Assembly: GCA_021775005.1 (NCBI GenBank)
Contig: JAJFIK010000075.1
Location: 11,086-75,085 of the forward strand
Direction: 5' to 3'
DNA: 64,000 nucleotides
DNA from: Rhodospirillales bacterium
GTDB taxonomy: Bacteria > Pseudomonadota > Alphaproteobacteria > JAJFIK01
Position numbers and translations under genes: made by a program. Positions within the stretch are counted from its first letter, which is position 1. Every line of letters starts with the position of its first letter. A model generated the notes under the pieces. That model worked only from the letters and a program-made list of their open reading frames with translations. It made no database searches and had not been told where the DNA came from. Of the stretch, positions 7,345 to 55,008 are shown piece by piece.

Positions 7345-7348
7345 GTTT

Positions 7349-7406: not shown

Positions 7407-7425
7407 AATGACAATCGCAGTCATT
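7407..7425. promoter_or_regulatory. inverted repeat AATGAC-N7-GTCATT (second candidate operator)
   Basis: Perfect 6-bp arms read directly. It shares the TGAC/GTCA half-site with 7349..7365. Confidence 0.35.
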
Positions 7426-7456
7426 TGGATCATTGCCGCACTGAGGAACAACACCG

Positions 7457-9142
7457 ATGAATTTAGGTATCATGAAATGGGTAGCGGGAATCGCCGGGGC
7501 AATCGGGTTGGTTTTGATCGCCGCCTATGTGTTTCGGGTGGAACTCATCCTTCACTACATCCGCTATCAAACGGACACGCGCACACCGGTTGGTGAACAT
7601 CAAAGTGTCACATGGGGCGGCGCAGCGGCAGGCCAGCTTGAGGTGCCGCGCAGCGACGGCCCACCAAATGTTATTCTGATTGTCGCCGACGATCTGGGCT
7701 GGAATGATTTGACGTTCAATGGCGGCGGCGTTGCGGGCGGTTCTGTGCCCACACCGAACATTGATCGCATTGCCCATGAGGGCGCGATCTTCAGGAACGG
7801 CTATGCGGCCAATGGCACCTGTGCGCCCTCTCGCGCTTCGCTTATGTCGGGGCGGTATTCCACCCGCTTTGGCTTTGAGTTCACGCCCACACCGCCCGGC
7901 ATGTTGCAGAACCTGACGCGCCTTGTGCCGCGCCCCGCCGGAGAGCCCGAATTCTTCACTTACTTCGGCGACGAGGGCCGTGCCGCGGTTCCGTTTGAAG
8001 ATATGGGCATGCCCCCGTCCGAAATTACGTTGGCGGAAACCATGCGCGATGCGGGCTACTACACCGCCCATATCGGCAAATGGCATTTGGGCCGATCGCC
8101 GGGGATGATGCCCCATGAGCAAGGCTTTGACGACAGCTTGCTGATGCACTCGGGATTCTACCTGCCTGAAGACAGCCCGGATGTTGTGAATTCGCGCCAG
8201 GATTTCGATCCCATTGACCGGTTCCTATGGGCGGGGATGCAATATGCCGCCAGCTTTAACGGCAGCGACGCGTTCGAGCCCGATGGCTACATCACTGACT
8301 ACTATACCGACGAAGCTATCAACGTGATTGAACAGAACCGCCAACGCCCTTTCTTTATGTATCTTGCCCATTGGGCACCGCACACGCCATTGCAAGCCAG
8401 CCGTGAAGACTATGAGGCGCTGTCCCATATCGAAGATCACCGCTTGCGCGTTTACGCAGCGATGATCCGCGCGCTGGATCGCGGCGTGGGGGAGGTCTTG
8501 GACGCGCTGGAAGAAAACGGCATCGCGGACAATACGCTGGTCATCTTCACCTCAGACAATGGCGGCGCGGACTATGTGGGCCTGCCTGAGATCAACGAGC
8601 CCTTCCGCGGATGGAAGATCACCTTCTTTGAGGGCGGCATTCACGTGCCCTACTTTATGCGTTGGCCGGGCACTATTCCGGCGGGCACGCGGGTGAATGA
8701 CCCGGTGCATCACTTTGACATCTACGCCACTGCCGCTGATGCAGGCGGCGCGACCCTGTCGCAGGACCGGGTGGTGGACGGGGTTTCGCTCCTGCCTTAT
8801 GTGACCGGCGATGAACCCGTGACGCTGGATGCGCCCCATGATCGCCTGTTCTGGCGCGAAGGCGGCTATCAGGTCGTGATGGCGGAGGGCTGGAAATTGC
8901 AGCGGGATGCCCGCCAGCAACGAACATGGCTGTTCAACATGACCGATGATCCCACTGAGCAGTACAATGTGGCGGACGCTCACCCCGAACGCGTGGCGGC
9001 CATGCACGACATGCTGGACGCCCATAATGCGGAGCAGATGGACCCGATCTGGCCCGCGCTGGTAGAGGCCCCGATTCGCATTGATGTAACTGTGGATCAG
9101 CCATGGGAAGAGGACGACGAGTATATTTACTGGCCAAACTAG
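7457..9142 (+). CDS. sulfatase (arylsulfatase family) with an N-terminal TM/signal anchor
   Basis: NVILIVADDLGWND...PTPNIDRIA and the C-A-P-S-R formylglycine motif (GTCAPSRASLMSGR), plus other conserved sulfatase blocks. Confidence 0.85.
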   Translation: MNLGIMKWVAGIAGAIGLVLIAAYVFRVELILHYIRYQTDTRTPVGEHQSVTWGGAAAGQLEVPRSDGPPNVILIVADDLGWNDLTFNGGGVAGGSVPTPNIDRIAHEGAIFRNGYAANGTCAPSRASLMSGRYSTRFGFEFTPTPPGMLQNLTRLVPRPAGEPEFFTYFGDEGRAAVPFEDMGMPPSEITLAETMRDAGYYTAHIGKWHLGRSPGMMPHEQGFDDSLLMHSGFYLPEDSPDVVNSRQDFDPIDRFLWAGMQYAASFNGSDAFEPDGYITDYYTDEAINVIEQNRQRPFFMYLAHWAPHTPLQASREDYEALSHIEDHRLRVYAAMIRALDRGVGEVLDALEENGIADNTLVIFTSDNGGADYVGLPEINEPFRGWKITFFEGGIHVPYFMRWPGTIPAGTRVNDPVHHFDIYATAADAGGATLSQDRVVDGVSLLPYVTGDEPVTLDAPHDRLFWREGGYQVVMAEGWKLQRDARQQRTWLFNMTDDPTEQYNVADAHPERVAAMHDMLDAHNAEQMDPIWPALVEAPIRIDVTVDQPWEEDDEYIYWPN

Positions 9143-9161
9143 AATTCTGCTTTTTGGCGGA

Positions 9162-10073
9162 GTGGTTGTCGCTACCGTTGCCATTGGTGCCTGGTTCTTT
9201 CTGGGGCAACTGAACGGCGCTGGCGTGACGTCTGCGGCGGCTTGCGGCGATACGCCAGCAAACACGTTTGTCTTTGTGCCCGGCGGCGGCTTCCAGATGG
9301 GGTCCAATGACTACTATCCGGACGAAGCCCCGATCCGCGATGTGGTGATGGAGGGGTTTTGGATTCGCCGCACCGAAATCACCAATGCTGAGTTCCGCGC
9401 CTTTGTTGCCGCGACCGGCTACGTCACTGTTGCCGAGCGCGCGCCCCCCGAAGGGGTTGCGCCAGGATCGGCAGTCTTCGTTCCGGCCCAGCGCGGCGAG
9501 CCCATTCGGCCGATGAGTTGGTGGCATTGGGTGCCCGGTGCCGATTGGCGCCATCCCGAGGGGCCGGGCAGTTCAATCGACGGCAGGGACGGCTATCCCG
9601 TCACGCAAATTGCCTATGAAGATGCGCTCGCCTTTGCGGAATGGGCCGGTGAGACCCTGCCCAATGAAGCGCAATGGGAATATGCCGCCAGTGCGGGCGG
9701 CACGGTGTCCGACAGTCCCTATCGCATAGAAGACGGCGCGCCCCACCCCATCGCCAACACATGGCAAGGTTTGTTCCCGGTCCTCAACACCGGCGAGGAT
9801 GGGTTTTTGGGCACCTCTCCCGCTGGATGTTTTGAGGCCAATGCTTTTGAGCTGCATGACATGATCGGCAATGTGTGGGAGTGGACGGCAACGCCTGCGA
9901 CCGGCACTGCGCGCGGCGTCATCAAAGGCGGATCGTATCTCTGCGCACCAAATTACTGCATGCGCTATCGCCCTGCCGCCCGCGAAGCGCAAGAAACCGG
10001 CCTTGGCACGAACCACATCGGCTTCCGCACCATCCGCACTGCGCCGCCGCCGCAACCTGCACAGAGTCAATAA
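9162..10073 (+). CDS. formylglycine-generating enzyme (FGE/SUMF1 family)
   Basis: FGE-sulfatase domain motifs: RTEITNAEFRAFV, YPVTQIAYEDALAFAEWAG, HDMIGNVWEWT and GGSYLC. It lies 20 nt downstream of the sulfatase. Confidence 0.85.
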   Translation: MVVATVAIGAWFFLGQLNGAGVTSAAACGDTPANTFVFVPGGGFQMGSNDYYPDEAPIRDVVMEGFWIRRTEITNAEFRAFVAATGYVTVAERAPPEGVAPGSAVFVPAQRGEPIRPMSWWHWVPGADWRHPEGPGSSIDGRDGYPVTQIAYEDALAFAEWAGETLPNEAQWEYAASAGGTVSDSPYRIEDGAPHPIANTWQGLFPVLNTGEDGFLGTSPAGCFEANAFELHDMIGNVWEWTATPATGTARGVIKGGSYLCAPNYCMRYRPAAREAQETGLGTNHIGFRTIRTAPPPQPAQSQ

Positions 10074-40961: not shown

Positions 40962-42692
40962 TCAAGTTGAAGCTGCAACACTACCGGTGTTGCCCTTAAC
41001 CGAATCGTGATCGATTTTCCTGCGCCACCAATCTAGGAAAGGCTTTGGTGCCAACGGTCGACAATAATGAAAACCCTGTGTGCCGGAACATCCAAAATCA
41101 TGCAGCACTGTTGATAGGTCCGAACTCTCGATTCCCTTTACTATGACGTCCATCTCAAATGCCTTACCGAGTCCAATCAATGCCCCAACTATGGAATCGT
41201 CTGAATCGCCTTCGCGATTCCATTTATGGTTGATCTTTACACGGTCAAACGGAAGGCTTTTTTGATCCACTAAGGATATTGCGCCCATACCAAAGTTATC
41301 CAACACAAGTTTAACTCCAAGCGTTTTTAGCCGCAAAAGTTCTGCGGTCACAATATCATTGTGACCCGTAATTGTGTCTTCAGAAAACTCCAATTCCAAG
41401 CAATTCAGGTTTACGTCGGAGTCAAAGACAGAGCCTCTTATGACTTCATAAAGATCACCCTTGCGAAGTTGAACTAACGAAATATTTATCGATACAAATA
41501 TTTTTGGAAGAGACATTTCATTCCACTCTCGAATGTGTTGGCACACTTGCTGGATTAGCCACGCGCCAATGGGGTGCACGAGACCGCTGTTCTCCGCAAC
41601 TTCCAAAAATTCAACTGGAAGTATCAAACCCCTTTCCGGGTGTTCCCATCGTAGTAGCGCTTCAACACCAATTACACTTCCACTCATTGGGTCAACAACC
41701 GGTTGAAAATGGACACGCAATTCGTCAGAATTGATTGCCTTAGCCAAGTCAGAAGCCAGTTCTTTTTGCATCTGCAATTTAGCGTTCATTTCACTCTCAT
41801 GAAATTGGACGGTTCCGCGGCAAATGTCCTTTGCGCGATAGAGTGCCATGTCCGCTTGTTTCAAAAGTAGATCCGAATTCTTATCGCCATGAGAGTACAT
41901 CGAAATCCCCACGCTAGCACCTGACTGAATTGACAAACCCTGAATGTCATATGGGTCACTCAATGCAGAAATAATTTTCCCCGCGAGAACTTCAGCACCG
42001 TGCGCATTATCTAAGTTGGTCGCCAAGACTGCAAACTCGTCACCACCCAAACGGGCGACGGTGTCTGTCTCCCGAACACACTTTTTCAATCGGTTCGATA
42101 CCTCAACGAGTAACGCATCCCCGACCAAATGGCCGTGCACGTCGTTGACATTTTTGAAATGATCCAAATCCAGAAGCAAAATGGCCAATGACCGCCCAAT
42201 GCGGTCCGCCTGTGATATCCCCTCATTCAACTGAGCCGCAAAATACGACCGATTTGCTAGACCGGTTAAGACATCATGTCGAGAAAGCTTTGTGAGCCGC
42301 TCCTCGTGGAAATGTCTTTCTTTCGCATAACGAATTGCACGCTCCAATAACGGAGCGTCTAGCCTTCCTTTGACTAAGTAGTCCGCTACACCAACCTCAG
42401 ATGCCTGAAGGTCCAGTTCAAAATTCTCCATGCCCGTAAGTATAATGAAAGGTGGTTGGTTTCCGAGGCGAATGGCTTCTCTCACCAAATCAAGGCCACT
42501 TCTCTCCCCGAGATGGTGGTCAACAAGGCATACATCAAAATCAAATTGATTCAGGGCTTCTTTAGCATCGCCCCAATCACTGATCCATTTAAGTTTAAAA
42601 TTTCCACCAAAGGCGTCACTCAACAAGCTTTTTGTAAGAAGAAAATCGTCTTCGTCATCCTCAATTAACAGAATTTTGTTTGAGCCTTTCAT
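40962..42692 (-). CDS. response regulator with GGDEF and EAL domains
   Basis: REC (ILLIEDDEDD), then GGDEF (RLGGDEF) and EAL (EALLRW) motifs. Low GC. Confidence 0.8.
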   Translation of the reverse strand: MKGSNKILLIEDDEDDFLLTKSLLSDAFGGNFKLKWISDWGDAKEALNQFDFDVCLVDHHLGERSGLDLVREAIRLGNQPPFIILTGMENFELDLQASEVGVADYLVKGRLDAPLLERAIRYAKERHFHEERLTKLSRHDVLTGLANRSYFAAQLNEGISQADRIGRSLAILLLDLDHFKNVNDVHGHLVGDALLVEVSNRLKKCVRETDTVARLGGDEFAVLATNLDNAHGAEVLAGKIISALSDPYDIQGLSIQSGASVGISMYSHGDKNSDLLLKQADMALYRAKDICRGTVQFHESEMNAKLQMQKELASDLAKAINSDELRVHFQPVVDPMSGSVIGVEALLRWEHPERGLILPVEFLEVAENSGLVHPIGAWLIQQVCQHIREWNEMSLPKIFVSINISLVQLRKGDLYEVIRGSVFDSDVNLNCLELEFSEDTITGHNDIVTAELLRLKTLGVKLVLDNFGMGAISLVDQKSLPFDRVKINHKWNREGDSDDSIVGALIGLGKAFEMDVIVKGIESSDLSTVLHDFGCSGTQGFHYCRPLAPKPFLDWWRRKIDHDSVKGNTGSVAAST

Positions 42693-42708
42693 AGGTATCT
42701 CTATTCCT

Positions 42709-43155
42709 TCAACTGGGAGGCATCTCTACAACTTGCAGCCAATAATTCTTCAAAGCCTTGATTACATCAACTAACCCTTCAAATGTAACCGGTTTGGCAA
42801 TAAAGGAATTTGCCCCCAAATTGTATGTATGCAGAAGATCTTCTTCCGACTTGGAAGTAGTTAGTATCACTAAAGGAATGTGTCGGAGCGCGGGGTTTGA
42901 TTTAATTTCTGCCAATGCTTCACGACCATCCATGCGCGGCATATTGAGGTCCAGCAGGATTAATCCAGGTTGAGCGCGCTTTGGAGGTTTTGCATAGCTG
43001 CCCTGCTTGAGAAGATAATCCAACAATTCAACCCCGTCCTCAACAAACTCAATCGGATTGGCAAGTTTGGCTTCTTCAAATGCTTCCTTGATCAGGAATC
43101 GATCATCCGGATCGTCCTCAGCGATCAATATTGTCAAACCGATTTTATTCTGCAT
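42709..43155 (-). CDS. single-domain response regulator
   Basis: ILIAEDDPDDRFLI...ILLDLNMPRMDG. The start was chosen at MQNKIG. The ORF extends to 43230 and would overlap the kinase. Confidence 0.75.
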   Translation of the reverse strand: MQNKIGLTILIAEDDPDDRFLIKEAFEEAKLANPIEFVEDGVELLDYLLKQGSYAKPPKRAQPGLILLDLNMPRMDGREALAEIKSNPALRHIPLVILTTSKSEEDLLHTYNLGANSFIAKPVTFEGLVDVIKALKNYWLQVVEMPPS

Positions 43156-45463
43156 CAATTTTCTCTTGTTTTTCTGATTCGGTTTCAATTGGTAATGATA
43201 CTGTAAACGAGCTCCCCTCTCCAGACGCACTCGAAGCGAAAATCAAACCCCCATGCTGTTCAACGATCTTCTGACAAATTGCGAGCCCGATACCTGTACC
43301 TTCGTATTTTGACCTTCCATGCAGGCGTTGAAATATTCCGAAAATGCGTGTGACATATTTTTGATCAAAGCCAATACCGTTATCTACAATTGAAATATTA
43401 TAAAAACGAGTTGATCCAGAACCTTGACTCATGTCATTTTGATCAACAATTGCGCTCGATATGCACACCCTACAAGATACATCCTCGCGGCGGTATTTCA
43501 ATGCGTTGCCAATTAGATTTTGGAATAATTGCCGCATTTGAAGGGGAGCAGCTGTCACAACCGGCAATTTTTTGACTTCAACTTCCGCATTAGCTTCAAT
43601 TATTTGAAACTCAAGATCGTTTACCACCTCCCGGACTAAAACATCCAAATCGATGGTTGCGAACTCTTCGCCTTTCGTTCCGATACGAGAGTATTCTAGA
43701 AGATCATTTATCAATTTCTGCATTCGTTTGGTCGCTTGATGCATTCGTGCCAAGTAGTCCAGGCCCTCTTCGTCAAGCGCCGACTCATATTTCGTTCTCA
43801 ACCGGTCTGAGAAAGCTTGAACTTTGCGCAATGGTTCTTGAAGGTCATGGGACGCTACATATGCGAAATGCCCGAGCTCTGCATTGGATTTCTCCAATCG
43901 CAAAACAGTTTGATCAAGTTCCCTTTCCGCCGCCACCTGATCGGCAATATTGCGAACCACACCGGTGATCGTATCCTCACTACCTTGATTGATGATCAGA
44001 TCTATCTCAAAGGTGGCGCCCGTCTTGTGCAGGCCCGTCATAACTCGTCGCTTCCCGATGACTCCCGCGCCCGAACCATTGGCAAACTTTTCCATATGGG
44101 ACGTATGAGCAATTGCATACTTCTTGGGCATAAGCATTTCTACGTTCTTGCCAATGACCTCCTCTGCGGCATATCCAAAGATTGTCTCGGCGCTTGGATT
44201 GAAGCCCAATATGTTGCCTGCTTGATCTGTGGTAATGATACCGTCAGGCACCGTCTCGATTACACTGCGGAGTTTCGCCTCGCTCGCCTGAAGTTGACGT
44301 TCGCGCTCCTGTAATTGCTTTGTCGAACTTTCAAGTTTTTCGTTAGACGATCTGATCCTGGCTGTCATGTCACGGGCGATGCCACGGGCGCGCCTTTGTA
44401 GAGAGGCCTGGGAAGCCACGACATAGAAAAGAAAGATGTTGACGATTACTCCAACCACCCCAATCAGAAGAGGCAATCTTGCCGCAGCAACATCGAGGGC
44501 GCTTTGATCTGCTAGAAAGCGTACAGTCCAGTTCCTGCCTTGCAATGAAATTTGTGTTGTCGCCATATGGACATTGTCTGCCGACACAGCTGACATCTCG
44601 GTGGTCTCCCTGCTATTGAACATGAGGTTATCGGAGGTCGTGTCACCGTCGAAAACTTCAAAGCCAATTGCCCCCGGGTTGTCTCCGAGAATACCCTCCA
44701 TCAAATCGGCCATCCTGAAAGGCGCGTAAACCCATCCCCGAAATGCCGCTCGTCTTTCCTCTACAGAGCTAACTGGCATATCAGATTCATATAGTGGTAC
44801 ATAGGTCAGGAATCCCCGTTGAACATCGTCATCCGTTTCCTGGACAAGCGTAATGATTCCGGAGATTGAGGCTAGACCGGTATCACGTGCACGGGTCATC
44901 GCCGCGCGGCGCATGTCATTGGACCACATATCGTAACCGAACGCACGTTGGTTCCGCCAATCGAAGGGTTCCAAAAAAATGATAGCACTGTATTCCTCAC
45001 GCACTCCCTCTGGCCGTATTAGATAATCCGGGAACCCTTCCGCCCGGATGGCGTTTATATGTGATTGTTTGTCTTCAGGACTAACAGGGATGCTGTAGCC
45101 CAAACCCTGAATACCCGGCCATCTCGTATCAACGTCAAGACGGGCAACATACTGTTGCCATTGGTTCCTATTTACATCTCCAATGACATTCAAGAAACTG
45201 ACACCACCCCAGAGTACGTCTTCATAGACATCCATCCGTTGACGAATGGCCGACGAAATTTCATTTGCTCTTGTGTTGAATCGTAGTTCAGAGACCCTGT
45301 CGACAAGCTTGTCCGACGCCCACCAGGCAACAATTGTCAAGATTATACCGCACAACAGTACTCCCCAGGCCGTATAGGAATTGTGCACCCAATCAGAATC
45401 AGATTGTCTAAAACTCTTTTCCATCCTTAAGCCTTCGCTAGGCTGCTTTTCATATCCTGCCAA
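43145..45463 (-). CDS. sensor histidine kinase with periplasmic CHASE domain, PAS, HisKA and HATPase
   Basis: CHASE-like motifs WPGIQGLGY and EEYSAIIFLEP...AFGYDMWS. TM, PAS, H-box ASHDLQEPLRK and G-boxes follow. Confidence 0.75.
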   Translation of the reverse strand: MAGYEKQPSEGLRMEKSFRQSDSDWVHNSYTAWGVLLCGIILTIVAWWASDKLVDRVSELRFNTRANEISSAIRQRMDVYEDVLWGGVSFLNVIGDVNRNQWQQYVARLDVDTRWPGIQGLGYSIPVSPEDKQSHINAIRAEGFPDYLIRPEGVREEYSAIIFLEPFDWRNQRAFGYDMWSNDMRRAAMTRARDTGLASISGIITLVQETDDDVQRGFLTYVPLYESDMPVSSVEERRAAFRGWVYAPFRMADLMEGILGDNPGAIGFEVFDGDTTSDNLMFNSRETTEMSAVSADNVHMATTQISLQGRNWTVRFLADQSALDVAAARLPLLIGVVGVIVNIFLFYVVASQASLQRRARGIARDMTARIRSSNEKLESSTKQLQERERQLQASEAKLRSVIETVPDGIITTDQAGNILGFNPSAETIFGYAAEEVIGKNVEMLMPKKYAIAHTSHMEKFANGSGAGVIGKRRVMTGLHKTGATFEIDLIINQGSEDTITGVVRNIADQVAAERELDQTVLRLEKSNAELGHFAYVASHDLQEPLRKVQAFSDRLRTKYESALDEEGLDYLARMHQATKRMQKLINDLLEYSRIGTKGEEFATIDLDVLVREVVNDLEFQIIEANAEVEVKKLPVVTAAPLQMRQLFQNLIGNALKYRREDVSCRVCISSAIVDQNDMSQGSGSTRFYNISIVDNGIGFDQKYVTRIFGIFQRLHGRSKYEGTGIGLAICQKIVEQHGGLIFASSASGEGSSFTVSLPIETESEKQEKIDAE

Positions 45464-46075: not shown

Positions 46076-46438
46076 TCAGAAAACGGCAGATGCTGGCGTG
46101 CCAGCTAGCAGGAGCGCACCGCAAGCAACTTCAAAGCCAATATTGATTATGTTTTGGCGGGAAAGGGTCTGGTCAAAGGCAAAAGAAACAAAGCGTCCCA
46201 GCGCTGTGGTGAGCCAAATGATACCCGCCATGGCAAATGCCAAGGGCTCCATTGTGATAAGGGGCACTGCGCCAAGGCCAATCCAGAGCCCGCCAAAAGA
46301 CGCCCGAAATTCTGAACGCCCCTCAAGCCTCGCTGCTTCAAGGCGCACCAACTCGGCAGCTTTGTGAGGAAGCAAGAGTCCGTAAAAGCCAAGGCCGACA
46401 GTCACAACGGCTGCAATAATGTTCAGAGCATCAAACAT
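46076..46438 (-). CDS. small integral membrane protein (DUF4345-like)
   Basis: About 120 aa with 3-4 TM helices. An 8-nt overlap with the upstream DUF1365 gene. Confidence 0.4.
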   Translation of the reverse strand: MFDALNIIAAVVTVGLGFYGLLLPHKAAELVRLEAARLEGRSEFRASFGGLWIGLGAVPLITMEPLAFAMAGIIWLTTALGRFVSFAFDQTLSRQNIINIGFEVACGALLLAGTPASAVF

Positions 46439-47213
46439 GACGAATATTCCCTTTGGCCCCCTGCACTTCAGTGTCCGAACTACCGACGAACGGCACACCT
46501 TTGAGCCACAGCAGCACAGCGTTCCAGTGAATGGAAAAAAGCGTGCCAAACATGGAACTGGGCAGAAGGCCGAAGTGCGAAACGAGTTTTCGGTCCGACA
46601 GGGGTTCCAGTCGGACCCGCAATGAAGTGCTAAGAACCGTTCCTTTCTCAGTTTGATACTGGATCACCAGTTGAAAAATATCGCGCGAAACGGAGAGGCG
46701 GAAGTAATACTCGCCCTCAATGCGGTTGAATGGCGAGACGTGCATTTCCTTGCGCGCGGCAAATAGGTGGGTTTCGGCGTCAGGGTCCGTAACGAGGAAA
46801 CTGTAATGACGCCGCTCCCCAAAGGTTGAATTTACTTCAAAGATGACGCCAATCAGATCGTCCTTTGCATTGCGGCAAAGATAACAACTGATCGGGTTGA
46901 AAGCGATTCCGCAAACGCGCGGGTAAGTCACAAGCTCGACACGGGTAATGTCTGCTGCCGATCCCAATTCAAGCATCTGAGTTCGGACAAACTCACTTAT
47001 GGTTCTACTGTTGTCGTCGCCATAGTCAGAGGGGCGCAGCGAGATAAAATTCGGTCCATCCACGGAAAACAGCATCAGCTTCTGATCGAGCCGGTCGAGT
47101 TCCGTCAGATCGAGACGCACGACCGGGTAGGATACGTTGAGCACGTGCACGCGCGGCGACACACGCCGATGCATAACTTTCCCTTTCCCAATGGCACTGC
47201 GCAGTTCGCTCAT
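46431..47213 (-). CDS. DUF1365 family protein
   Basis: The start region GKVMHRRVSPRVH is typical of DUF1365. It follows the FAD oxidoreductase, as in Rhodobacter singlet-oxygen operons. Confidence 0.6.
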   Translation of the reverse strand: MSELRSAIGKGKVMHRRVSPRVHVLNVSYPVVRLDLTELDRLDQKLMLFSVDGPNFISLRPSDYGDDNSRTISEFVRTQMLELGSAADITRVELVTYPRVCGIAFNPISCYLCRNAKDDLIGVIFEVNSTFGERRHYSFLVTDPDAETHLFAARKEMHVSPFNRIEGEYYFRLSVSRDIFQLVIQYQTEKGTVLSTSLRVRLEPLSDRKLVSHFGLLPSSMFGTLFSIHWNAVLLWLKGVPFVGSSDTEVQGAKGNIRHV

Positions 47214-48610
47214 CAGTTCGCCAAATTCAATCGGGCCTGCGATGCGCCCAGAGATGACGGGTGATTGGGCCAGTAGATGCGATCCATCGCCCTTTCGCTG
47301 GCCCAGGGGCGCGCGGGTGCCCCCAAGGCTTCGGCCACAGCAAGACCCGACTGAAGGCCATCTTCGTGAAATCCGTATCCCCAATAGGCGCCGCAGAACC
47401 ATGTGTTTTGCACGCCTTGCAAGGTCCAAAGCTTACGCTGAGCTTTCATGGCGGCGGCGTCAAAGACGGGGTGGGTGTAAGTGAAGCTATTGAACACGTG
47501 CTCTGGGGCGGGCGGTGTTGAGGGGTTCAAGGTGACCAGGAGCGGCGTTTTGGTGGGTATCGATTGGAGCCGATTCATCCAATAGGTCAGACTGATGCTG
47601 CTCTCCTCCGTATCACCCTCACCGCTTAGATAATTCCAGCTCGACCATGCGTTACGGCGCTGGGGCATGAAATCTGTATCGCGGTGCAAGTAAACCATAT
47701 TCTCCTGATACCCTATAGCGCCGAGAAGGTTTTTCTCATCGCACGTGGGGCGATCCAAAAGAGCCAAAGCTTCATCGCTGTGACAGGCGAAGATGACGTG
47801 ATCAAATTCCTGTGGTGGTCGGGCCTCAAAGTGAATGATGTGTTTGTCGCCTGTCCGCTCGACAGTGACGATACGGGCATTAAGAACGGTATCACACCTC
47901 GTATCTTTAATCAGTCTACTGACATATTCGCGGCTGCCGCCAAATACTGTGCGCCATTCAGGCCGCCCACCGAAACGCATCAGGCCATGGTTTTCGAAAA
48001 ACTTGAGGAAGGACCGCGCCGGAAACTGCCGCATGGTCTCCACCGGCGATGACCAAATCGCCGCACACATGGGTAGAATATGATCGTGCCGAAATGTCCG
48101 GGAGAAACCTTTGTCATCGAGATAGTTTTCAAGGGACTTGTGCTCATCATCACCCGATAGCGCCGCCAAATCTTGTGGCCCATCGCGGTAAAGCCGCAGA
48201 AGGTCGGCAATCATGCGCCACATGCGGTGGCGAACCACATTTCGTCGCTGGGCAAAAAGGCCGCTTAAGCCCGATCCGGAATATTCAAAACTGCCGTCGC
48301 CCAAGGACGCTGCAAAACTCATGTCACTGGGGATTGTGGGGACGCCAAGGGTTTTGAAAAGCCCCGTCAAGTTGGGATAGTTCGTCTCGTTATAGACAAT
48401 GAACCCCGTATCAACAGGGAATACACCGTTCTCGCATTCCACTTCCGTGGTGTGAGAGTGGCCTCCAAGCCGGTCATTACGCTCAAACAGCGTCACATCA
48501 TAAAGAGTGCCCAAACGCCAGGCCGCCGCAAGGCCGGAGATGCCGGAGCCCACAATAGCCAGGCGCGGTCGGCGGCCTTGTGACGTGGGGAATGAGATGA
48601 CTTCGGCCAT
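47213..48610 (-). CDS. NAD(P)/FAD-dependent oxidoreductase (amine oxidase-like)
   Basis: Dinucleotide-binding motif LAIVGSGISGLAAAWRL...ERNDRLGGHSHT. AGAGGA lies 8 nt before the ATG at 48610. Confidence 0.75.
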   Translation of the reverse strand: MAEVISFPTSQGRRPRLAIVGSGISGLAAAWRLGTLYDVTLFERNDRLGGHSHTTEVECENGVFPVDTGFIVYNETNYPNLTGLFKTLGVPTIPSDMSFAASLGDGSFEYSGSGLSGLFAQRRNVVRHRMWRMIADLLRLYRDGPQDLAALSGDDEHKSLENYLDDKGFSRTFRHDHILPMCAAIWSSPVETMRQFPARSFLKFFENHGLMRFGGRPEWRTVFGGSREYVSRLIKDTRCDTVLNARIVTVERTGDKHIIHFEARPPQEFDHVIFACHSDEALALLDRPTCDEKNLLGAIGYQENMVYLHRDTDFMPQRRNAWSSWNYLSGEGDTEESSISLTYWMNRLQSIPTKTPLLVTLNPSTPPAPEHVFNSFTYTHPVFDAAAMKAQRKLWTLQGVQNTWFCGAYWGYGFHEDGLQSGLAVAEALGAPARPWASERAMDRIYWPNHPSSLGASQARLNLAN

Positions 48611-48645
48611 GTGCGGCATCCTCTTTGGGGTAACTGATGCCTCTT

Positions 48646-48672
48646 CTACGGATGCGAGCCGTCATCGGATCA
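48646..48672 (-). promoter_or_regulatory. candidate sigma-E-type promoter TGATCC-N16-CGTAG for the FAD-oxidase/DUF1365 operon
   Basis: On the - strand, TGATCCGATGACGGCTCGCATCCGTAG, about 30 nt upstream of the oxidase start. Confidence 0.5.
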
Positions 48673-48684
48673 AAAGAAAAAAGG

Positions 48685-48711
48685 TGATCCAATTGGCAAC
48701 GCCTTTCGTAT
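48685..48711 (+). promoter_or_regulatory. candidate autoregulatory sigma-E promoter TGATCC-N16-CGTAT upstream of rpoE
   Basis: TGATCCAATTGGCAACGCCTTTCGTAT. I recall this as matching the TGATCC -35 / CGTA-containing -10 of Rhodobacter RpoE promoters. Confidence 0.5.
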
Positions 48712-48788
48712 GGGTTTGTATGTACGCGCAAGACCTACATTTCACGCCGAGCCCATTTGGCGTTGCCCCCCAAGGGAAGGGAGCCTCT

Positions 48789-49373
48789 GTGCCGCCTGAA
48801 GACTCTGATGCGCAGGATCAGGACGTTGCGAGCGAGCAACGGTCTTGCGTGCAAAGGATCGCCGTTGCACGGGATCAGGCCGCATTCACGACACTTTTTG
48901 ATTATTTTGGGCCGCGGGTGAAAAGCTTTTTGATGTCGCGGAGGCTGAACCCCCAGACGGCTGACGATCTGGCCCAGGAAGTGATGCTCACCATCTGGCG
49001 CAAGGCCCATCAGTATCAACCGGACAAGGCAAGTGTATCTACCTGGGTCTATACAATCGCCCGGAACCGTATGATCGATGACCGGCGCGTGGAAGCCAAG
49101 CGCGCACGGCTCGACACGAGCGATCCCAGTCAGGAACAGCCCGCACCCCCAACACCCGAAGAAGTTCTTCAGCGGTCTTCTGACGCATTGATCGTCACAT
49201 TAGCCCTTCAAAGCCTGCCGCAATCGCAGGAAGAAATTATGCGCCTGTCGTTTATGGATGGGCAAAGCCACCATGAGATTGCCGAACGATTGGGATTGCC
49301 TTTGGGGACCGTAAAATCTCGAATTCGTCTCGCCCGACAACGACTTTCTGATTATTTTGGAGCTCGCTCATGA
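48789..49373 (+). CDS. rpoE: ECF RNA polymerase sigma factor (RpoE-like, group IV sigma-70)
   Basis: Sigma-70 region 2 (AQEVMLTIWRKAHQYQ) and region 4 (EEIMRLSFMDGQSHHEIAERLGLPLGTVKSRI). GTG 48789 was chosen because GGGAAGGGAG lies 6 nt upstream. The ORF extends to 48507. Confidence 0.75.
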   Translation: MPPEDSDAQDQDVASEQRSCVQRIAVARDQAAFTTLFDYFGPRVKSFLMSRRLNPQTADDLAQEVMLTIWRKAHQYQPDKASVSTWVYTIARNRMIDDRRVEAKRARLDTSDPSQEQPAPPTPEEVLQRSSDALIVTLALQSLPQSQEEIMRLSFMDGQSHHEIAERLGLPLGTVKSRIRLARQRLSDYFGARS

Positions 49374-50023
49374 CCCACCAAACCGCCCACACAGCGCTTG
49401 GCGAAGAATGGTTCGTGGACTATGCCGCGGGAAACCTGTCGCCAGCCTATGCCGCAGTTGCCGAGTGCTTTCTTGATCTCAATGAGGATTGCCGAGAAAC
49501 CGTCGATGAGCTTGAACGCGTTGGCGGTGCACTGCTTGATACGGCGGATGCGGGTGCGGGTCTTTCTGTTGTCGCGGCTGACTTGCTTGCGCGAGAAGAC
49601 GATGCACCGGAATCCCAAGGGCAGGAAAGCCAATGCCCTGATTACATCCCAAACTCTTTGCGCGAGAAATTTGATCTGGACCGCAATGGCGTCAAATGGA
49701 CATTCCTGGGGCCAGGCCTGCAAAAGGCGCTTTTGTGGAAGGGCAGCAATGATGATCGTCTTTGGCTTTTAAAAGCAGAACCCGGCGTTGCCATTCCCAA
49801 TCACACCCATCGCGGCGCGGAGCTTACCCTCGTGCTGAAAGGTGAATTCAGGGATGGCGAGGATGTCTATGGCGTGGGTGACGTGGAAGAGGCCGACCAT
49901 GACCTGACCCACACCATCAAAATCTCGTCGGAAGAGAGTTGCATTTGCCTTGCCGCCACCAAAGGGCGCCTGATATTTCCAGCGCCTCTTATCAAGCTGA
50001 TGCAAGTATTCCTGGACATCTGA
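49370..50023 (+). CDS. chrR: ChrR-family anti-sigma-E factor (N-terminal zinc-binding ASD, C-terminal cupin)
   Basis: ATGA overlap with rpoE. The C-terminal cupin reads LWLLKAEPGVAIPNHTHRGAELTLVLKGEFRDGEDVY. Confidence 0.75.
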   Translation: MTHQTAHTALGEEWFVDYAAGNLSPAYAAVAECFLDLNEDCRETVDELERVGGALLDTADAGAGLSVVAADLLAREDDAPESQGQESQCPDYIPNSLREKFDLDRNGVKWTFLGPGLQKALLWKGSNDDRLWLLKAEPGVAIPNHTHRGAELTLVLKGEFRDGEDVYGVGDVEEADHDLTHTIKISSEESCICLAATKGRLIFPAPLIKLMQVFLDI

Positions 50024-50544
50024 TGGCGCGAAAAGCCTTTCAAGTCGGAGATGTCATCACTGTCGATGACACGATGCAGTCGGACTATTGCTATCGGCTG
50101 GATGCTCCTATGGGGGAGATATCCAATACAGAATTTCAACCACACCTAACGCCGGTTGAAATGTTGGAAATGGGATGCTTCGAAGGCAAGTACCTGAACG
50201 ACTGCCGCAATGAATTCCCCGCTGAATGGTTCACGAAGGCAAAGCTGAGTGATACGCCCCGACCCGAGCTCAATTACTTCGGGATCAAGAGCCGCCAACC
50301 CCTGTCTCACTGGCGGGAAAAAGGCTGGATCATTGCGCCTGATCCGCGTGGCTGGTTTCAGTGGTATTGCCGGTACTACCTTGGGCGCCGCCTGCCGCAG
50401 GTGGATGCGGTACAGATCAAACGGTGGAAGGGGTTTGCGCGGCATGCCGGGCAAATTCGCGCGAACTGCGAGCCCGGCGATGTGTTTTGTAGGCCAAGGC
50501 AGCGCCAGGCCCTTCTCCAATGGGCGCATGACCCTTTGGTTTGA
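50023..50544 (+). CDS. conserved hypothetical protein, third gene of the rpoE-chrR operon
   Basis: The start ATG overlaps the chrR stop (TGATG). 173 aa, Trp/Cys-rich (GWFQWYCRYYLGRR). Family not recognised. Confidence 0.5.
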   Translation: MARKAFQVGDVITVDDTMQSDYCYRLDAPMGEISNTEFQPHLTPVEMLEMGCFEGKYLNDCRNEFPAEWFTKAKLSDTPRPELNYFGIKSRQPLSHWREKGWIIAPDPRGWFQWYCRYYLGRRLPQVDAVQIKRWKGFARHAGQIRANCEPGDVFCRPRQRQALLQWAHDPLV

Positions 50545-50584
50545 TCGAGAAATTCGGATCCCTCAAAATTTGCCCCTTCACTGG

Positions 50585-50611
50585 TGATCCAAGTCGGTGC
50601 GCCTTACGTAA
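50585..50611 (+). promoter_or_regulatory. candidate sigma-E-type promoter TGATCC-N16-CGTAA upstream of blc
   Basis: TGATCCAAGTCGGTGCGCCTTACGTAA, about 57 nt upstream of the blc ATG. Confidence 0.45.
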
Positions 50612-50667
50612 AAGAAACAACAAAGGCCACGCGCAAATTTCGTTAGCGCCCCATTTGGTGAGTTGTC

Positions 50668-51237
50668 ATGCATAGCCTTACAAGTGCCCTGGTGAAAGTT
50701 GCCCGCCTCCCCTTACTCCTGGGTCTTTTTCTTGGTGTCTCCGGATGCACCGAAGCCCCGTCTGGCATTGAGCCCGTTGCCGGTTTTGAACCGGAGCGCT
50801 ATCTCGGCCAATGGTATGAAATCGCCCGCCTTGATCATTCATTTGAGCGCGGACTTTCCAATGTCACGGCAAATTATGCGGCGCGTGACGACGGCAAAAT
50901 TGGTGTAGTCAATCGCGGCTTTGATCAAGAGACATGCATGTGGGATGAGGCCAAAGGATCTGCCCGCTTTCTCGGTTCGCGCGATGTGGGCAGCCTGGCC
51001 GTTACGTTCTTTTGGCCCTTTGCCGGGGGCTATCACATCGTTGAGCTGGACAGGGACGAATACCAATACGCATTGGTCTCTGGTCCATCTCGCGACTACC
51101 TCTGGATCCTCGCCCGCAATCCCACGTTGCCCGACGACACCGAAGCGATGCTGATTGATCGCGCGGCGAGGCTGGGGTTTCCGACGGAAGATCTGATTTT
51201 CGTGGATCACTCTGATCCTGATTGTTCGCAGTCATAA
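50668..51237 (+). CDS. blc: bacterial lipocalin Blc (outer-membrane lipoprotein)
   Basis: Lipobox LFLGVSGC and lipocalin motif ERYLGQWYEIARLD. Confidence 0.8.
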   Translation: MHSLTSALVKVARLPLLLGLFLGVSGCTEAPSGIEPVAGFEPERYLGQWYEIARLDHSFERGLSNVTANYAARDDGKIGVVNRGFDQETCMWDEAKGSARFLGSRDVGSLAVTFFWPFAGGYHIVELDRDEYQYALVSGPSRDYLWILARNPTLPDDTEAMLIDRAARLGFPTEDLIFVDHSDPDCSQS

Positions 51238-51278: not shown

Positions 51279-52064
51279 ATGACCCGCAAACTTACTGTGC
51301 TCCCTTCAGTCTTGCTGATTGCTCAACTTGGTTTGGCCATTCCGTCCATCGCCCAGCCTCGTGAATCAGGAAACGGCAATGACCTTTCCATTTCGCTGGG
51401 GGCATTGGCTCTTTACGCGCCTTCTTACGAGGGCTCCGACGAATACGAGTTTCGCGGTTTCCCTTTGATCGATATTGAATACCGGGATCGGTTCTTTCTC
51501 GATGGCCGAAACGGCGCCGGTGTGCACCTGATCAATGAAGGTGCGGTAACGCTTTCGACTTCCATTGGCTATGCCTTTGGCCGCGATGAAGATGATTCAA
51601 GCACACTTCGCGGCATGGGTGATATTGACGGCGGGGCTCTGGCCATCGTGCAAGGCGGGCTGAAGGTGGGCATGTTCAGCGTTGACATGCGGGCACGCCA
51701 TCAATTCAGCGGTACGGGTACAGGCACATTGTTTGATCTGGGGCTAAGCACATTCCAACGCTATGACAGTGGCCTTTTCATTCGTCCAGCAGCCTCCCTG
51801 AGCTATGGAACGGATGACTACATGCAAGCCCATTTCGGCGTGACGGGGATGCAGGCGATCAGCAGCGGTTTGCCAAGTTACCTAGCCTCTTCGGGCATCA
51901 AATCTGTTGGGGCATCAGCCGTTATCGGCTATGCGCTTGACCGGAACTGGTCATTATCGGCGCGCGTTTCCTGGGATCGGTTGCTTAAGGATGCTGAAGC
52001 CAGCCCGCTTACTAACGATGCCAATCAATTCACGTTTGGCGCAGGCTTTTCTCGCAGATTTTAG
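51279..52064 (+). CDS. MipA/OmpV family outer-membrane protein
   Basis: Signal peptide, a Gly/Tyr/Asp-rich beta-barrel-like sequence and a C-terminal F (FGAGFSRRF). Confidence 0.6.
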   Translation: MTRKLTVLPSVLLIAQLGLAIPSIAQPRESGNGNDLSISLGALALYAPSYEGSDEYEFRGFPLIDIEYRDRFFLDGRNGAGVHLINEGAVTLSTSIGYAFGRDEDDSSTLRGMGDIDGGALAIVQGGLKVGMFSVDMRARHQFSGTGTGTLFDLGLSTFQRYDSGLFIRPAASLSYGTDDYMQAHFGVTGMQAISSGLPSYLASSGIKSVGASAVIGYALDRNWSLSARVSWDRLLKDAEASPLTNDANQFTFGAGFSRRF

Positions 52065-52067
52065 GGT

Positions 52068-52514
52068 TTACTTTAGTCTGACAGTACCATCTGCAAAACT
52101 AATCCCAGCCGCTGGAAATGTTCTTCTGATGCCTGCATCACGATTACACAAGAATCTAGTTATTGGTAGGGACACCGAGCCGGACGTCTTGTCGATTAGC
52201 CGATTGGTCAACTTGAGCAGGGTTGTCTTGCCGCATCTGGGGGGGGTGAGATGAACGATTGTCCCTCCATCCTCGACATTGGGCGTGATATTTCGAACGG
52301 CCCATGTCTCAGCCCCACTCGGATCAATCGCATTCATCGGATCATTACCCACATAGGCATACATGTTCATCTGATCCTCGTAGCCGATGGGGTCCGTCTG
52401 ATAGAAGCGCCCCAGGGGGCCGGAGTACATCCGCGCGCGGTAGTAATAAAGATTGGTTTCTGCGTCATAGCGCCGCCCGGTAAAGCGTAAAGAATCGCCC
52501 CCCGCATCATCCAC
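52068..52514 (-). pseudogene. orphan RHS-repeat-associated core fragment with a variable C-terminal tip
   Basis: [53 protein letters not shown] is the RHS core signature. Only 14 aa precede it and about 80 aa of lower-GC tip follow. No upstream RHS body. Confidence 0.6.
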
Positions 52515-52814: not shown

Positions 52815-52904
52815 TGGCGGAGAGACAGGGATTCGAACCCTGGGAACGCTCGCGCGCTCAACGGTTTTCGAGACCGCCCCGTTCGACCACTCCGGCATCT
52901 CTCC
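52815..52904 (-). tRNA. tRNA-Ser(CGA): tRNA-Ser (anticodon CGA), class II with a long variable arm, encoded CCA
   Basis: Hand-folded. Acceptor GGAGAGA/TCTCTCC, D-arm CCG-GAGTGGTCGAA-CGG, anticodon stem GCGGT/ACCGT with loop CTCGAAA, long variable arm, T-arm CAGGG-TTCGAAT-CCCTG, discriminator G plus CCA. Confidence 0.85.
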
Positions 52905-53009: not shown

Positions 53010-53942
53010 CTACGAGGCGGGAGAGGCTTGCAGCCAAAGCCGTTCAGCCTCTGAATCAATGATGAAATATTGATCCGACAACAGATCACTCCCAAGAATG
53101 ATTGTTGGTGTAGTTTCCTGCCTCAGCATTTGGAATATTGAAACATCGGAGGCGGTCAACGCTTCTTCGGACCATTCCTTCGCACCCAGTGTGATCAGCC
53201 CCACCGGCAAGCTCCACGCCGCAATGGGGTCATCGGTGGCACCGCGAATAGGCTCATCTTCTGCAAGTCCTGCTGTGGTGAGATCTTCCACACCAAGGGC
53301 AGCAGCCCCGGCAGGATTAATGGTGCTGCGCCGCGCGCCGGTATCGATGACCGCATCAAAAGCCACGCCATCAATCTCAACCTGGGCCCACAAGAACAGG
53401 CCATGACGCCGCTCTGTCGAAATACCGATCCAACTGCCACCATAAGCGCTGGCAGGATCAAAGCTGCCGGCATTGCCCACAGCGGCGGCATAGATATCCA
53501 AGCGGTCTTCGCTTGCAGCAAAGCCAACTGGTTGCGCGAAAAGAACGCCAACGCCCAAAACACCGGCGATATCAGAAAAATGTTCCACATCTGGAAGTGC
53601 AATCACCGTATCAATGTCGAAGGTCCAAGTGCTGGCTTCAAGGGTACCCAAGCTCACTTGACGTGCTTCGGTAACGCCGCTGGCCCCCTGGACCATGATG
53701 CGCTCCGCACTTTCCACTTCGCTAAGGCCTGCCTCAACGGCAAAGCTGTCGAACACCATTGTGCTACCTGACGCAGAGTCAACAATGAAAGTGTAAGGCC
53801 CCTCGCCATTGACCATGAAGTCAACAAGAAAATGTCCGTCCTCGGACAATCGCGCGGGCACAGGAATGGGCGATGCCGAGACCGGTGTGCCCAGTGTCGG
53901 CAGTGCCAGAATGAAAATAAAAATTGCTAGTAGTCGTTGCAT
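53010..53942 (-). CDS. secreted pseudo-dimeric retropepsin-like (clan AA) aspartic protease
   Basis: Signal peptide. The second lobe carries VIDTGARRST (D-T-G-A). The first lobe has IVDSASGST in the homologous position. The start was chosen at MQRLLAIF; the ORF extends to 53996. Confidence 0.55.
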   Translation of the reverse strand: MQRLLAIFIFILALPTLGTPVSASPIPVPARLSEDGHFLVDFMVNGEGPYTFIVDSASGSTMVFDSFAVEAGLSEVESAERIMVQGASGVTEARQVSLGTLEASTWTFDIDTVIALPDVEHFSDIAGVLGVGVLFAQPVGFAASEDRLDIYAAAVGNAGSFDPASAYGGSWIGISTERRHGLFLWAQVEIDGVAFDAVIDTGARRSTINPAGAAALGVEDLTTAGLAEDEPIRGATDDPIAAWSLPVGLITLGAKEWSEEALTASDVSIFQMLRQETTPTIILGSDLLSDQYFIIDSEAERLWLQASPAS

Positions 53943-54021
53943 GATGGGCCTCCCTTGGTTGCTCACCATGGAGCGCCCTGAGCGGCGCAGGTTCAACTTA
54001 ACTCTGTGTCATGAACAAGAT

Positions 54022-55008
54022 TTAATCTGCGGCTGCGCTTTGTGAAGTCGTTCCTTGCTCAGCAAAGAAGTTCCCTAAAACCGAAGGGTGCCGCGCTTGC
54101 ACCCAAAGCTGCCGGCCAATGGGATCAATGACAAAATTCTGCTCCGCCAAAAAATCGGCGCCCAGGATCATGACCGGTTGATCATCTGCTTCAAACGACG
54201 CAAAAATGGGCAAATCCGCCAGCGAGATTGTGCGTGCCGCCCAGACCCGCTCGCCCAACTGCAAGGTTGAAACCGGCACAATCCAGGCTGCAACCATGTC
54301 AGGGGAAGCACTTTGAATGGGCGCGTCTTCAGTAAGCGCCACATAGGCCGGATCAATGCCCGCCGCAACAGCAGCAGCAGAGTTGATCGTTGAACGCTGC
54401 GCGCCGGTATCGATTAGGGCCGGAATTGTTACGCCATTGATGGCAACATCAATCCAGTAAAACCCTTGGCCTTCGGCAAAACCTTCACGCTCGGACATTT
54501 CAACAGCAAACCAACTTCCCTCTAGATCGGTTTCGGGATCAATCGCCTCACCGGTGCGATAAAGATGCAAACGCCCTTCGGACAAAGCAAATCCCACCGG
54601 CTGGCGGTAAAGAACGTCCGCGCCCAAAATGCCGTAGCTTGTTTCTTCAAGCGCCAGCCCGGGGCTAAAACTCAAGATATATGGCAGATCAATTTGCTCT
54701 GCGCCGATGCGAACACTGCCCAGCTCAACCACTTCGGCCGCAATGGACCCGCTGGAGGCTTGCAGCGTAATGGTACCTTCGCTCACGACCCGCTCCAGCG
54801 CCATACGGTCTGAAAGATTGTCGAATATAATTGTGCCGCTGGCGGCGCTGTCCACAATAAAGGGATAAGGCCCCTCGTCATTGACCCAGGTGTCGATAAT
54901 GAGGTGATGGTCGCTGGTGAGCCGTACCGGCACGTCAAAGGGGTCCGCGGCCAGCGCCGGAAGGCAGCCAGCTATCCCCATTGCAAGTGCGAGCAAAACG
55001 CGCGTCAT
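54022..55008 (-). CDS. secreted pseudo-dimeric retropepsin-like aspartic protease (tandem paralog)
   Basis: Paralog of the upstream gene with the same length. LIDTGAQRST in lobe 2, IVDSAASGT in lobe 1. Signal peptide MTRVLLALAMGIAGCLPALAA. Confidence 0.55.
   Translation of the reverse strand: MTRVLLALAMGIAGCLPALAADPFDVPVRLTSDHHLIIDTWVNDEGPYPFIVDSAASGTIIFDNLSDRMALERVVSEGTITLQASSGSIAAEVVELGSVRIGAEQIDLPYILSFSPGLALEETSYGILGADVLYRQPVGFALSEGRLHLYRTGEAIDPETDLEGSWFAVEMSEREGFAEGQGFYWIDVAINGVTIPALIDTGAQRSTINSAAAVAAGIDPAYVALTEDAPIQSASPDMVAAWIVPVSTLQLGERVWAARTISLADLPIFASFEADDQPVMILGADFLAEQNFVIDPIGRQLWVQARHPSVLGNFFAEQGTTSQSAAAD

Follow-up and report, generated by a model that had tools for sequence, protein, structure and literature searches.

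Extracytoplasmic function (ECF) sigma factors of the ChrR-partnered type (ECF11) have been studied experimentally in Rhodobacter sphaeroides, Pseudomonas syringae and Shewanella oneidensis. In R. sphaeroides the rpoE and RSP_1091 operons are each preceded by RpoE-dependent promoters (PMC3818230) and both are part of the core regulon (PMC3546557); in furan-fatty-acid synthesis RSP_1091 (UfaD) acts as the desaturase and RSP_1090 (UfaO) forms the furan ring in an O2-dependent reaction (PMC7380195). ChIP-seq of P. syringae PSPTO_1043 gave the consensus TGATCCnnnnnnnnnnnnnnnnCGTAnnnn, i.e. TGATCCn16CGTA, for σE of this type (PMC5507510), and the RpoE2 promoters of S. oneidensis, whose 5' ends were mapped, consist of TGATCC together with CGTAAT or CGTATT (PMC4336711). 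Here we analyse a locus with this motif in a 64-kb stretch of DNA from an uncultured Rhodospirillales bacterium (contig JAJFIK010000075.1, positions 11,086 to 75,085; the whole stretch is called the window below). It carries rpoE and chrR, divergently oriented homologs of ufaD and ufaO, and further downstream the lipocalin gene blc and the outer-membrane protein gene mipA. From the sequence evidence we consider it very probable that this locus forms the regulatory core of a σE stress regulon of the ChrR type (ECF11), in which σE would use three promoters, P_ufaD, P_rpoE and P_blc.

A scan of both strands of the window finds TGATCC-N16-CGTA exactly three times, and all three copies are intergenic and oriented toward a gene (Table 1). 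Count, lack of further copies and placement are thus as stated in the original prediction, a by-eye motif call; its positions agree with ours apart from a trivial difference of one base at one end of each site. In 100 dinucleotide-preserving shuffles of the window the motif occurred 0.02 times on average and none of the shuffled sequences reached three, so that the earlier estimate of fewer than 0.2 chance occurrences was conservative. Spacers of 15 to 17 nucleotides yield no further exact sites in the window (0.20 expected), and a relaxed scan (at most one mismatch in the -35 element, exact CGTA, N15-17) returns nothing beyond the same three sites. When one mismatch is allowed in the motif, a single additional site appears at 8463 (+), and the four sites found against 2.95 expected are at chance level. 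Sites 1 and 2 are a back-to-back divergent pair. The CGTA of site 1 ends 27-36 nucleotides from the start of ufaD, depending on whether the ATG at 48619 or that at 48610 is used, the latter being more likely, while that of site 2 ends 78 nucleotides from the GTG of rpoE (48789). Site 3 begins 40 nucleotides past the stop codon of orf173 and its CGTA ends 57 nucleotides from the ATG of blc (50668); no σ70-like promoter was found in the gap between these two genes.

Table 1. Positions of the predicted promoters and genes of the locus, and of related features in other contigs (L numbers are our contig labels).
Feature	Position	Strand	Remarks
Site 1, P_ufaD, predicted σE (ECF11)-type promoter	48647..48672	-	TGATCC 48672-48667, 16 nucleotides, CGTA 48650-48647; exact match; faces ufaD-ufaO-DUF4345
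Site 2, P_rpoE, predicted σE-type autoregulatory promoter	48685..48710	+	exact TGATCC-N16-CGTA(TGGG); 12 nucleotides from divergent -35
Site 3, P_blc, predicted σE-type promoter	50585..50610	+	exact TGATCC-N16-CGTA(AAAG); within the 123-nucleotide orf173-blc gap
rpoE, ECF sigma factor of ChrR-partnered (ECF11) type	48789..49373	+	Sigma70_r2 and r4_2
chrR, anti-sigma factor	49370..50023	+	N-terminal anti-sigma domain, C-terminal cupin (Cupin_7); overlaps rpoE stop
orf173, conserved 173-residue protein	50023..50544	+	ATGA overlap onto chrR
blc, outer-membrane lipoprotein lipocalin	50668..51237	+	Lipocalin_2 (PF08212) 9.9e-37; signal peptide, lipobox VSGC, Cys27
mipA, MipA/OmpV-family outer-membrane protein	51279..52064	+	Pfam MipA (PF06629) 3.6e-46 over full profile
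ufaD homolog, flavin adenine dinucleotide (FAD) amine-oxidase-like fatty-acyl desaturase	47213..48619	-	Pfam Amino_oxidase/NAD_binding_8; 43% identity to R. sphaeroides RSP_1091/UfaD over 428 residues
ufaO homolog, DUF1365 furan-ring-forming oxygenase	46431..47213	-	Pfam DUF1365 1.4e-57; 36% identity to RSP_1090/UfaO
DUF4345 small membrane protein, third gene of divergent operon	46076..46438	-	Pfam DUF4345 5.6e-11, over cut-off; ATGTTTGA overlaps ufaO stop
chrR without ZAS ligands	window 49370-50023; L001 308-958; L002 2663-3313; L004 9234-9884; L088 5001-5651		alignment
orf173 homologs near blc	L011 7660-8154; L042 8510-8989; L029 9556-10032; L031 9457-9942; L072 9433-9909; L006 2241-2409

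Genes were called from Pfam and NCBIfam scans combined with a reading of the gene junctions in the sequence, and the identities given in the original prediction (FAD amine oxidase, DUF1365 protein, ECF sigma factor, ChrR, Lipocalin_2/Blc and MipA) all hold in the domain scans. The sigma factor contains sigma regions 2 and 4 only (Sigma70_r2 and r4_2), as expected of group IV. Its best match in the PDB is R. sphaeroides σE (2q1z_A, 2.5e-35; the next ECF sigma factor follows at 1.5e-17), to which it is 40% identical over 163 residues. ChrR scores 143.1 bits on the ChrR family model TIGR02451 (cut-off 124.5); its best PDB match is likewise ChrR (2z2s_B, 4.5e-29, aligned over residues 14-203; 37% identity to the R. 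sphaeroides protein), and the four metal ligands of the cupin domain (R. sphaeroides H141, H143, E147 and H177) are all invariant in the ChrR alignment. The P. syringae orthologs, for which the same motif is used, are no closer (31-39% identity, and 35-38% for σE and ChrR) to the R. sphaeroides proteins than the window proteins are. Judged by these comparisons, rpoE and chrR are an ECF11-type sigma/anti-sigma pair, and by homology the pair may serve in the response to photo-oxidative stress.

The closest parallel is found at the R. sphaeroides locus itself, which was retrieved by rebuilding the σE sequence from a PDB alignment and locating the corresponding protein (P0241). It contains two exact, divergent, back-to-back sites, one at 8814-8839 (-) before RSP_1091 and one at 8871-8896 (+, CGTAAGA) before rpoE; the latter is the rpoE P1 promoter and the equivalent of site 2. 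The resemblance to the R. sphaeroides promoter stated in the original prediction is therefore borne out by a site pair at that locus. Both loci thus share the sigma/anti-sigma family, the exact motif, the divergent σE site pair between ufaD and rpoE, and a divergent operon headed by orthologs: the window proteins UfaD and UfaO and RSP_1091 and RSP_1090 are placed reciprocally. The two genes, in which the ATG of ufaO overlaps the stop codon of ufaD (TGATG) so that they are translationally coupled, are predicted to encode enzymes of the furan-fatty-acid pathway. There are also clear differences. The -35 elements of the divergent pair are 31 nucleotides apart in R. sphaeroides, as opposed to 12 in the window, and the divergent operon continues with MFS, DUF3833 and SDR genes there, whereas the window has the DUF4345 gene, in an order that is the same in the related contig L004. 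The rpoE operon of the window has a third gene, orf173, the window ChrR lacks the H-x3-C-x2-C zinc motif, and there is a third σE site before blc-mipA, neither gene being present at the R. sphaeroides locus.

The window motif matches the published promoter consensus of ChrR-type (ECF11) σE exactly. It is identical to the TGATCCn16CGTA of P. syringae PSPTO_1043 and S. oneidensis RpoE2, and both systems also share with the window the A/T-rich bases after CGTA and autoregulation (PMC5507510, PMC4336711). These regulons include species-specific "extended" targets beside the core lipid and photolyase genes, but the extended targets differ from those predicted here: a catalase, a glyoxalase and a diguanylate cyclase in P. 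syringae and a periplasmic glutathione peroxidase in Shewanella. One could nevertheless ask whether the window motif is read by another regulator, either a paralogous ECF sigma factor, as a second ECF sigma gene (33% identical) lies a few kb away in related contigs, or a protein binding the partly palindromic GGATCA/TGATCC, as the divergent region does contain inverted GATC-containing elements. However, the second ECF gene is absent at the window locus, site 3 has no inverted partner, and the motif not only equals the ECF11 consensus of three experimentally studied species but also stands upstream of the ECF11 sigma gene itself, which is a hallmark of ECF autoregulation. We consider the involvement of another regulator highly improbable.

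Relatives of the locus are few. A collection of 5.8 billion proteins contains only three close homologs of Blc (90, 82 and 79% identity), and no relative turned up when a genome collection was scanned with the one ChrR protein. The comparison includes the contigs of the Blc homologs (L001-L004) and two near-identical metagenome contigs found with ChrR (L088/L089), and with so few relatives recovered the footprinting rests on five distinct sequences. The identity of ChrR in these relatives is 69-92%. Their gene order is ufaO-ufaD, divergent from rpoE-chrR-(orf173)-blc-mipA; the blc-mipA pair occurs in all of them, and orf173 is present in L001, L002 and L088 and absent from L004. The sequences were compared without gaps and anchored on the motif; the background consisted of the spacer columns plus 20 columns on the upstream and 50 on the downstream side, and P values are binomial. 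All 10 motif columns are invariant at P_rpoE (window, L002, L004 and L088) as opposed to 40% of the background columns (P=9e-5), and 9 of 10 are invariant both at P_ufaD (background 19%, P=2e-6) and at P_blc (27%, P=5e-5). The blc site is exact in L001, L002, L003 and L004, and the ufaD site is exact in L002 and L088. In L004 the blc site stands directly after chrR and the DNA 5' of the -35 element is unalignable with the other contigs, while conservation starts at GGTGATCC. Conservation that sets in next to a replaced flank in this way is what a functional promoter would be expected to show.

The 5' leader of blc (window 50611-50670, +) shows stronger conservation than the promoter spacer (TTCGTTRGCGCCCCA...GGTGAGTTGTCATG). 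A hairpin may form there in which GACAAC pairs with GTTGTC right before the start codon and which may occlude the ribosome-binding region; two of its 13 pairs covary in the five sequences, which supports it weakly, and the leader matches no Rfam family.

If the three sites are used as we propose, the regulon core could work as follows. By analogy with R. sphaeroides, ChrR would keep σE inactive in unstressed cells, and a membrane-damaging oxidant (singlet oxygen or an organic hydroperoxide) would lead to the loss of ChrR and switch on the three transcription units together. Free σE would direct RNA polymerase to the three TGATCC-N16-CGTA promoters. P_rpoE would provide positive autoregulation and expression of chrR and of orf173, which lies on the same transcript given its translational coupling to chrR. 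P_ufaD would drive ufaD-ufaO-DUF4345, i.e. two steps of furan-fatty-acid synthesis, one carried out by a desaturase and one by an oxygenase. P_blc would provide the outer-membrane lipoprotein Blc together with MipA, and a plausible role of these two proteins is the maintenance of envelope lipids during stress.

Several observations weigh against this reading, the most general one being that the whole case is built on sequence. The ZAS domain of ChrR has lost its zinc ligands: in terms of the R. sphaeroides motif (H6, H31, C35 and C38), H31 is replaced by F or Y and C35 by N, and C38 appears as C, R or H. This holds for the window protein and for each of its four distinct relatives. The zinc site of this domain was proposed to be singlet-oxygen-reactive in R. 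sphaeroides, where zinc binding is needed for σE inhibition (PMC6852236). As the protein passes the curated family model, the loss does not exclude it from the ChrR family, but inhibition of σE in this lineage cannot rely on the canonical zinc site, and the inducing signal and control could differ from those of R. sphaeroides. Next, the motif deviates in some relatives. The only deviation is a single C->T change in the last base of the -35 hexamer, found before blc in L088/L089 and before ufaD in L004, and the resulting TGATCT is a weaker match that is tolerated in known regulons. Furthermore, of the core regulon genes known to carry the motif (ufaD/RSP_1091, ufaO/RSP_1090, cfaS/ufaM, phrB, SDR and RSP_1088), ufaD and ufaO stand behind an exact site here. 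The 64-kb window has no CFA-synthase (cyclopropane fatty acid synthase) signature, no photolyase signature and no homolog of RSP_1087-1089, so the methylase ufaM/cfaS that UfaD and UfaO need is absent from it. Both the methylase and the photolyase are presumably encoded elsewhere in the genome, with sites of their own. The wording "compact regulon" of the original prediction is not justified, since 64 kb is too small a span for such a statement and the core ufaM/cfaS and photolyase genes are missing from it.

Another point of this kind concerns site 3. No terminator-like hairpin was found in the orf173-blc gap, so that read-through from P_rpoE could contribute to the expression of blc. One may go further and suppose that only sites 1 and 2 are genuine and that site 3 is a relic or a coincidence, blc-mipA being served by read-through from P_rpoE or by an unrecognised promoter. 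Such a view can also draw on the fact that the whole blc leader is fairly conserved, as the conservation of the motif could then reflect a general constraint, and on the -35 mismatch at blc in L088/L089. On the other hand, an exact 10-base spaced match is expected only 0.02 times per window, the 9 invariant columns out of 10 in the blc motif compare with 6 of 16 in the spacer and 2 of 20 upstream, and L004 keeps the site right after chrR despite its replaced flanking DNA. We give this possibility little credence, and even if it were correct, blc-mipA would be σE-dependent via P_rpoE. The reading with a dedicated promoter at site 3 is preferred: a site that is exact, conserved and correctly placed supports the predicted membership of blc and mipA in the σE regulon.

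The two products of this unit are family members rather than strict equivalents of the best known proteins. Cys27 of Blc is invariant across 40 homologs. The NCBIfam model of the Blc subfamily (NF007786) matches the protein with 5e-60 and a score of 202, which is under the strict cut-off of 267, so that it is a Blc-like lipocalin and not a strict equivalog of E. coli Blc. Similarly, MipA obtains 31 bits on the Vibrio OmpV equivalog model, far under the cut-off of 400, and is thus a member of the family and not OmpV itself; the start at ATG 51279 gives a 261-residue protein with a signal-peptide-like N-terminus, as called in L003 and L004. mipA begins 41 nucleotides after blc and no convincing terminator was found at the junction, and given this spacing the two genes are probably co-transcribed.

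It is also necessary to ask how general the link between σE and blc is, and here lies the last of the points that count against our reading. A scan with the Blc alignment, using one genome per species, gave 80 distant blc loci. An exact site upstream of blc occurs in only one of them, L049 from a Dechloromonas metagenome-assembled genome, and relaxed sites within 400 nucleotides upstream of blc occur in six loci (about 1.2 expected); the link is consequently not general. The exact site of L049 (2437-2462, +) lies inside the 3' end of htpG (587-2497, +), 134 nucleotides upstream of blc. As a side observation, the convergent neighbour in L049 (3168-3881, -) codes for a product in which a ChrR-cupin-like (Cupin_7) domain occurs twice. 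None of the 80 loci has rpoE or chrR within 8 kb of blc. On this evidence a dedicated σE promoter on blc appears to be essentially confined to the present lineage.

The opposite view, that the ECF11 regulon has included Blc ancestrally and across bacteria, so that Blc belongs to the known core rather than being a lineage-specific addition, deserves attention, as there are several hints in its favour. Exact motifs are somewhat enriched in the 80 distant loci: besides the L049 site there are three near but not upstream of blc (L014 8507, +; L006 2477, +; L068 9839, -), i.e. four in about 1.09 Mb compared with about 0.34 expected at the rate of the window. The open reading frames (ORFs) checked downstream of the L014 and L006 motifs belong to no Pfam family. 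Moreover, ufaD/ufaO lie within 8 kb of blc in 5 of the 80 loci, and Blc-type lipocalins recur in ufaD-ufaO-cfa clusters. In L031, from an uncultured gammaproteobacterium, the tight cluster DUF2878-DUF1295-DUF6134-Lipocalin_2-ufaD-ufaO-CFA synthase-Lipocalin_2(Blc)-SDR-orf173 homolog (2159-9957, +) places two Blc-type lipocalins within a furan/cyclopropane fatty-acid gene cluster. Finally, there is a lipocalin in a σE operon of Stenotrophomonas maltophilia, where smlt2367, annotated as a "lipocalin family protein", is expressed +165-fold in ΔchrR and reverts in ΔchrRΔrpoEc (PMC11832516).

The weight of the evidence is nevertheless on the other side. The heads of the examined ufaD-blc clusters (L016, L026, L031, L032 and L035) were inspected for a σE-type site, and none was convincing. 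RSP_1088, a 186-residue protein of the R. sphaeroides core regulon, was suspected to be a Blc since its P. syringae ortholog is annotated as "lipoprotein", but it is a DUF3833 protein without Lipocalin_2 or profile similarity to Blc (hhalign probability 0.3%), which means that Blc is not in the R. sphaeroides core operon. The main text of the P. syringae and Shewanella papers does not mention lipocalin, blc or MipA (PMC5507510, PMC4336711). Together with the lack of rpoE and chrR near the distant blc genes and the single locus with an exact upstream site, this makes an ancestral membership of Blc rather unlikely. We thus retain site 3 as a well supported, purely computational prediction of a lineage-specific member of an extended regulon.

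The S. maltophilia system is instructive in other respects too. Its ChrR-type sigma operon, rpoEc-chrR-chrA, likewise has three genes (PMC11832516), and the species has a divergent lipid-modification operon with an FAD oxidoreductase and a strongly σE-dependent lipocalin; the smlt2375-2367 cluster resembles that of L031. Unlike in the window, the lipocalin gene is the last of nine genes of the divergent operon and has no σE promoter of its own, the third gene of the sigma operon encodes the NAD(P) oxidoreductase ChrA and not orf173, and no MipA is involved. By its annotation Smlt2367 may be a Lipocalin_2/Blc-type protein. The ChrR/σE-dependence of smlt2367 does provide a precedent for a lipocalin in a ChrR regulon, and the earlier assumption that neither gene had been reported as a member therefore stands for MipA and falls for the lipocalin. 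A literature search for ChrR and lipocalin returned the S. maltophilia study only, and one for lipocalin together with singlet oxygen and sigma factor gave nothing more; that for ChrR and MipA had a sole match, an unrelated Candida albicans paper. Dufour et al. 2008 reportedly defined the core and extended regulons. In a full-text search, which did not cover the extended-regulon tables of Dufour et al. 2008, no report of MipA as a ChrR/σE target was found.

Blc proteins of other bacteria offer a looser comparison. In Pseudomonas aeruginosa PA5107 (Blc) belongs to the stimulon of AlgU/σ22, so that the controlling factor is also an ECF sigma factor (PMC3372973). Expression of E. coli blc is induced in stationary phase and by osmotic stress, the reported ligands of the protein are lysophospholipids and possibly heme/porphyrins, and a role in membrane repair has been proposed. 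In these bacteria, as predicted for the window, an outer-membrane lipoprotein lipocalin responds to envelope-related stress. The sigma family and the promoter motif are different, however, and the trigger in the window would be a ChrR-controlled oxidative/lipid-damage pathway, with blc paired with mipA.

The third gene of the rpoE operon, orf173, belongs to a family of more than 8000 homologs, all unnamed, that form about 1,900 clusters at 50% identity. The aligned alphaproteobacterial sequences are 67-88% identical and more distant ones 52-58%, and the invariant features of the family are a DPRGWFQWYCRY..GRR core and four cysteines. orf173 has no match in Pfam, NCBIfam or the PDB, and its predicted structure, of moderate confidence, gave no fold match. 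In 5-6 of the 80 distant loci a homolog (55-61% identity) is found no further than about 2 kb from blc (Table 1). This proximity is far above the expectation for a single-copy gene and suggests a functional link between blc and orf173 that is independent of σE. orf173 was also considered as a general σE target and rejected as such, the homologs in Aliiroseovarius, Sphingopyxis and another alphaproteobacterial metagenome-assembled genome being in unrelated contexts without the motif.

The main value of these results is confirmatory, as a by-eye motif call recovered the core of an ECF11 regulon in an uncultured lineage. Sites 1 and 2 correspond to the core of a known, textbook system, and neither the motif nor the sigma/anti-sigma pair is new, nor are two of the three targets. 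The new part is modest and consists of a predicted dedicated, conserved σE promoter for the blc-mipA pair. In combination with the data from S. maltophilia and with the repeated occurrence of blc near ufaD-ufaO, it strengthens the idea that periplasmic or outer-membrane lipocalins take part in a ChrR-controlled response to lipid damage. Specialists may be more interested in two other aspects, namely a natural ChrR family without ZAS zinc ligands, of relevance to signal sensing, and orf173, a large and highly conserved family without a name or recognisable fold that is tied to the pathway by gene neighbourhood.

We may speculate further that the ChrR/σE response reaches beyond the furan-fatty-acid pathway of the inner membrane as far as the outer membrane, where Blc (with MipA) might transport or trap lipids that are damaged or modified, or else tetrapyrrole photosensitisers, that orf173 might be a missing component of lipid protection, and that a ZAS-less ChrR might control the response without a zinc site. 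The proposed role of Blc derives from the ligands reported for the E. coli protein. As for orf173, its gene is coupled to chrR here, and elsewhere homologs stand beside blc or are the last gene of a ufaD-ufaO-cfa-blc cluster. As a whole, this wider picture is tentative and, in our judgement, somewhat improbable; if true, the response could be controlled without the zinc site that was proposed as the singlet-oxygen sensor.

A few features of the neighbouring DNA can be added. The DNA downstream of the ufaD operon (40962-45463, -) carries a string of signalling genes, in which no σE motif was found; they code for a histidine kinase of the CHASE-PAS type and two response regulators, one with a single domain and one with GGDEF-EAL domains. 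In S. maltophilia a two-component cluster beside rpoEc-chrR belongs to the σE-dependent set. Directly past mipA, an ORF (52068-52514, -) joins an RHS-repeat-associated core fragment with an ABC-ATPase-like piece, and it is followed by tRNA-Ser (CGA; 52815-52904, -). The relatives carry other genes past mipA, so this region is variable, and it is possibly an integration hotspot at the tRNA gene. Beyond it lie two tandem, paralogous 328-residue ORFs (53010-53996, - and 54022-55008, -), each with two retropepsin-like aspartyl protease domains (Asp_protease_2).

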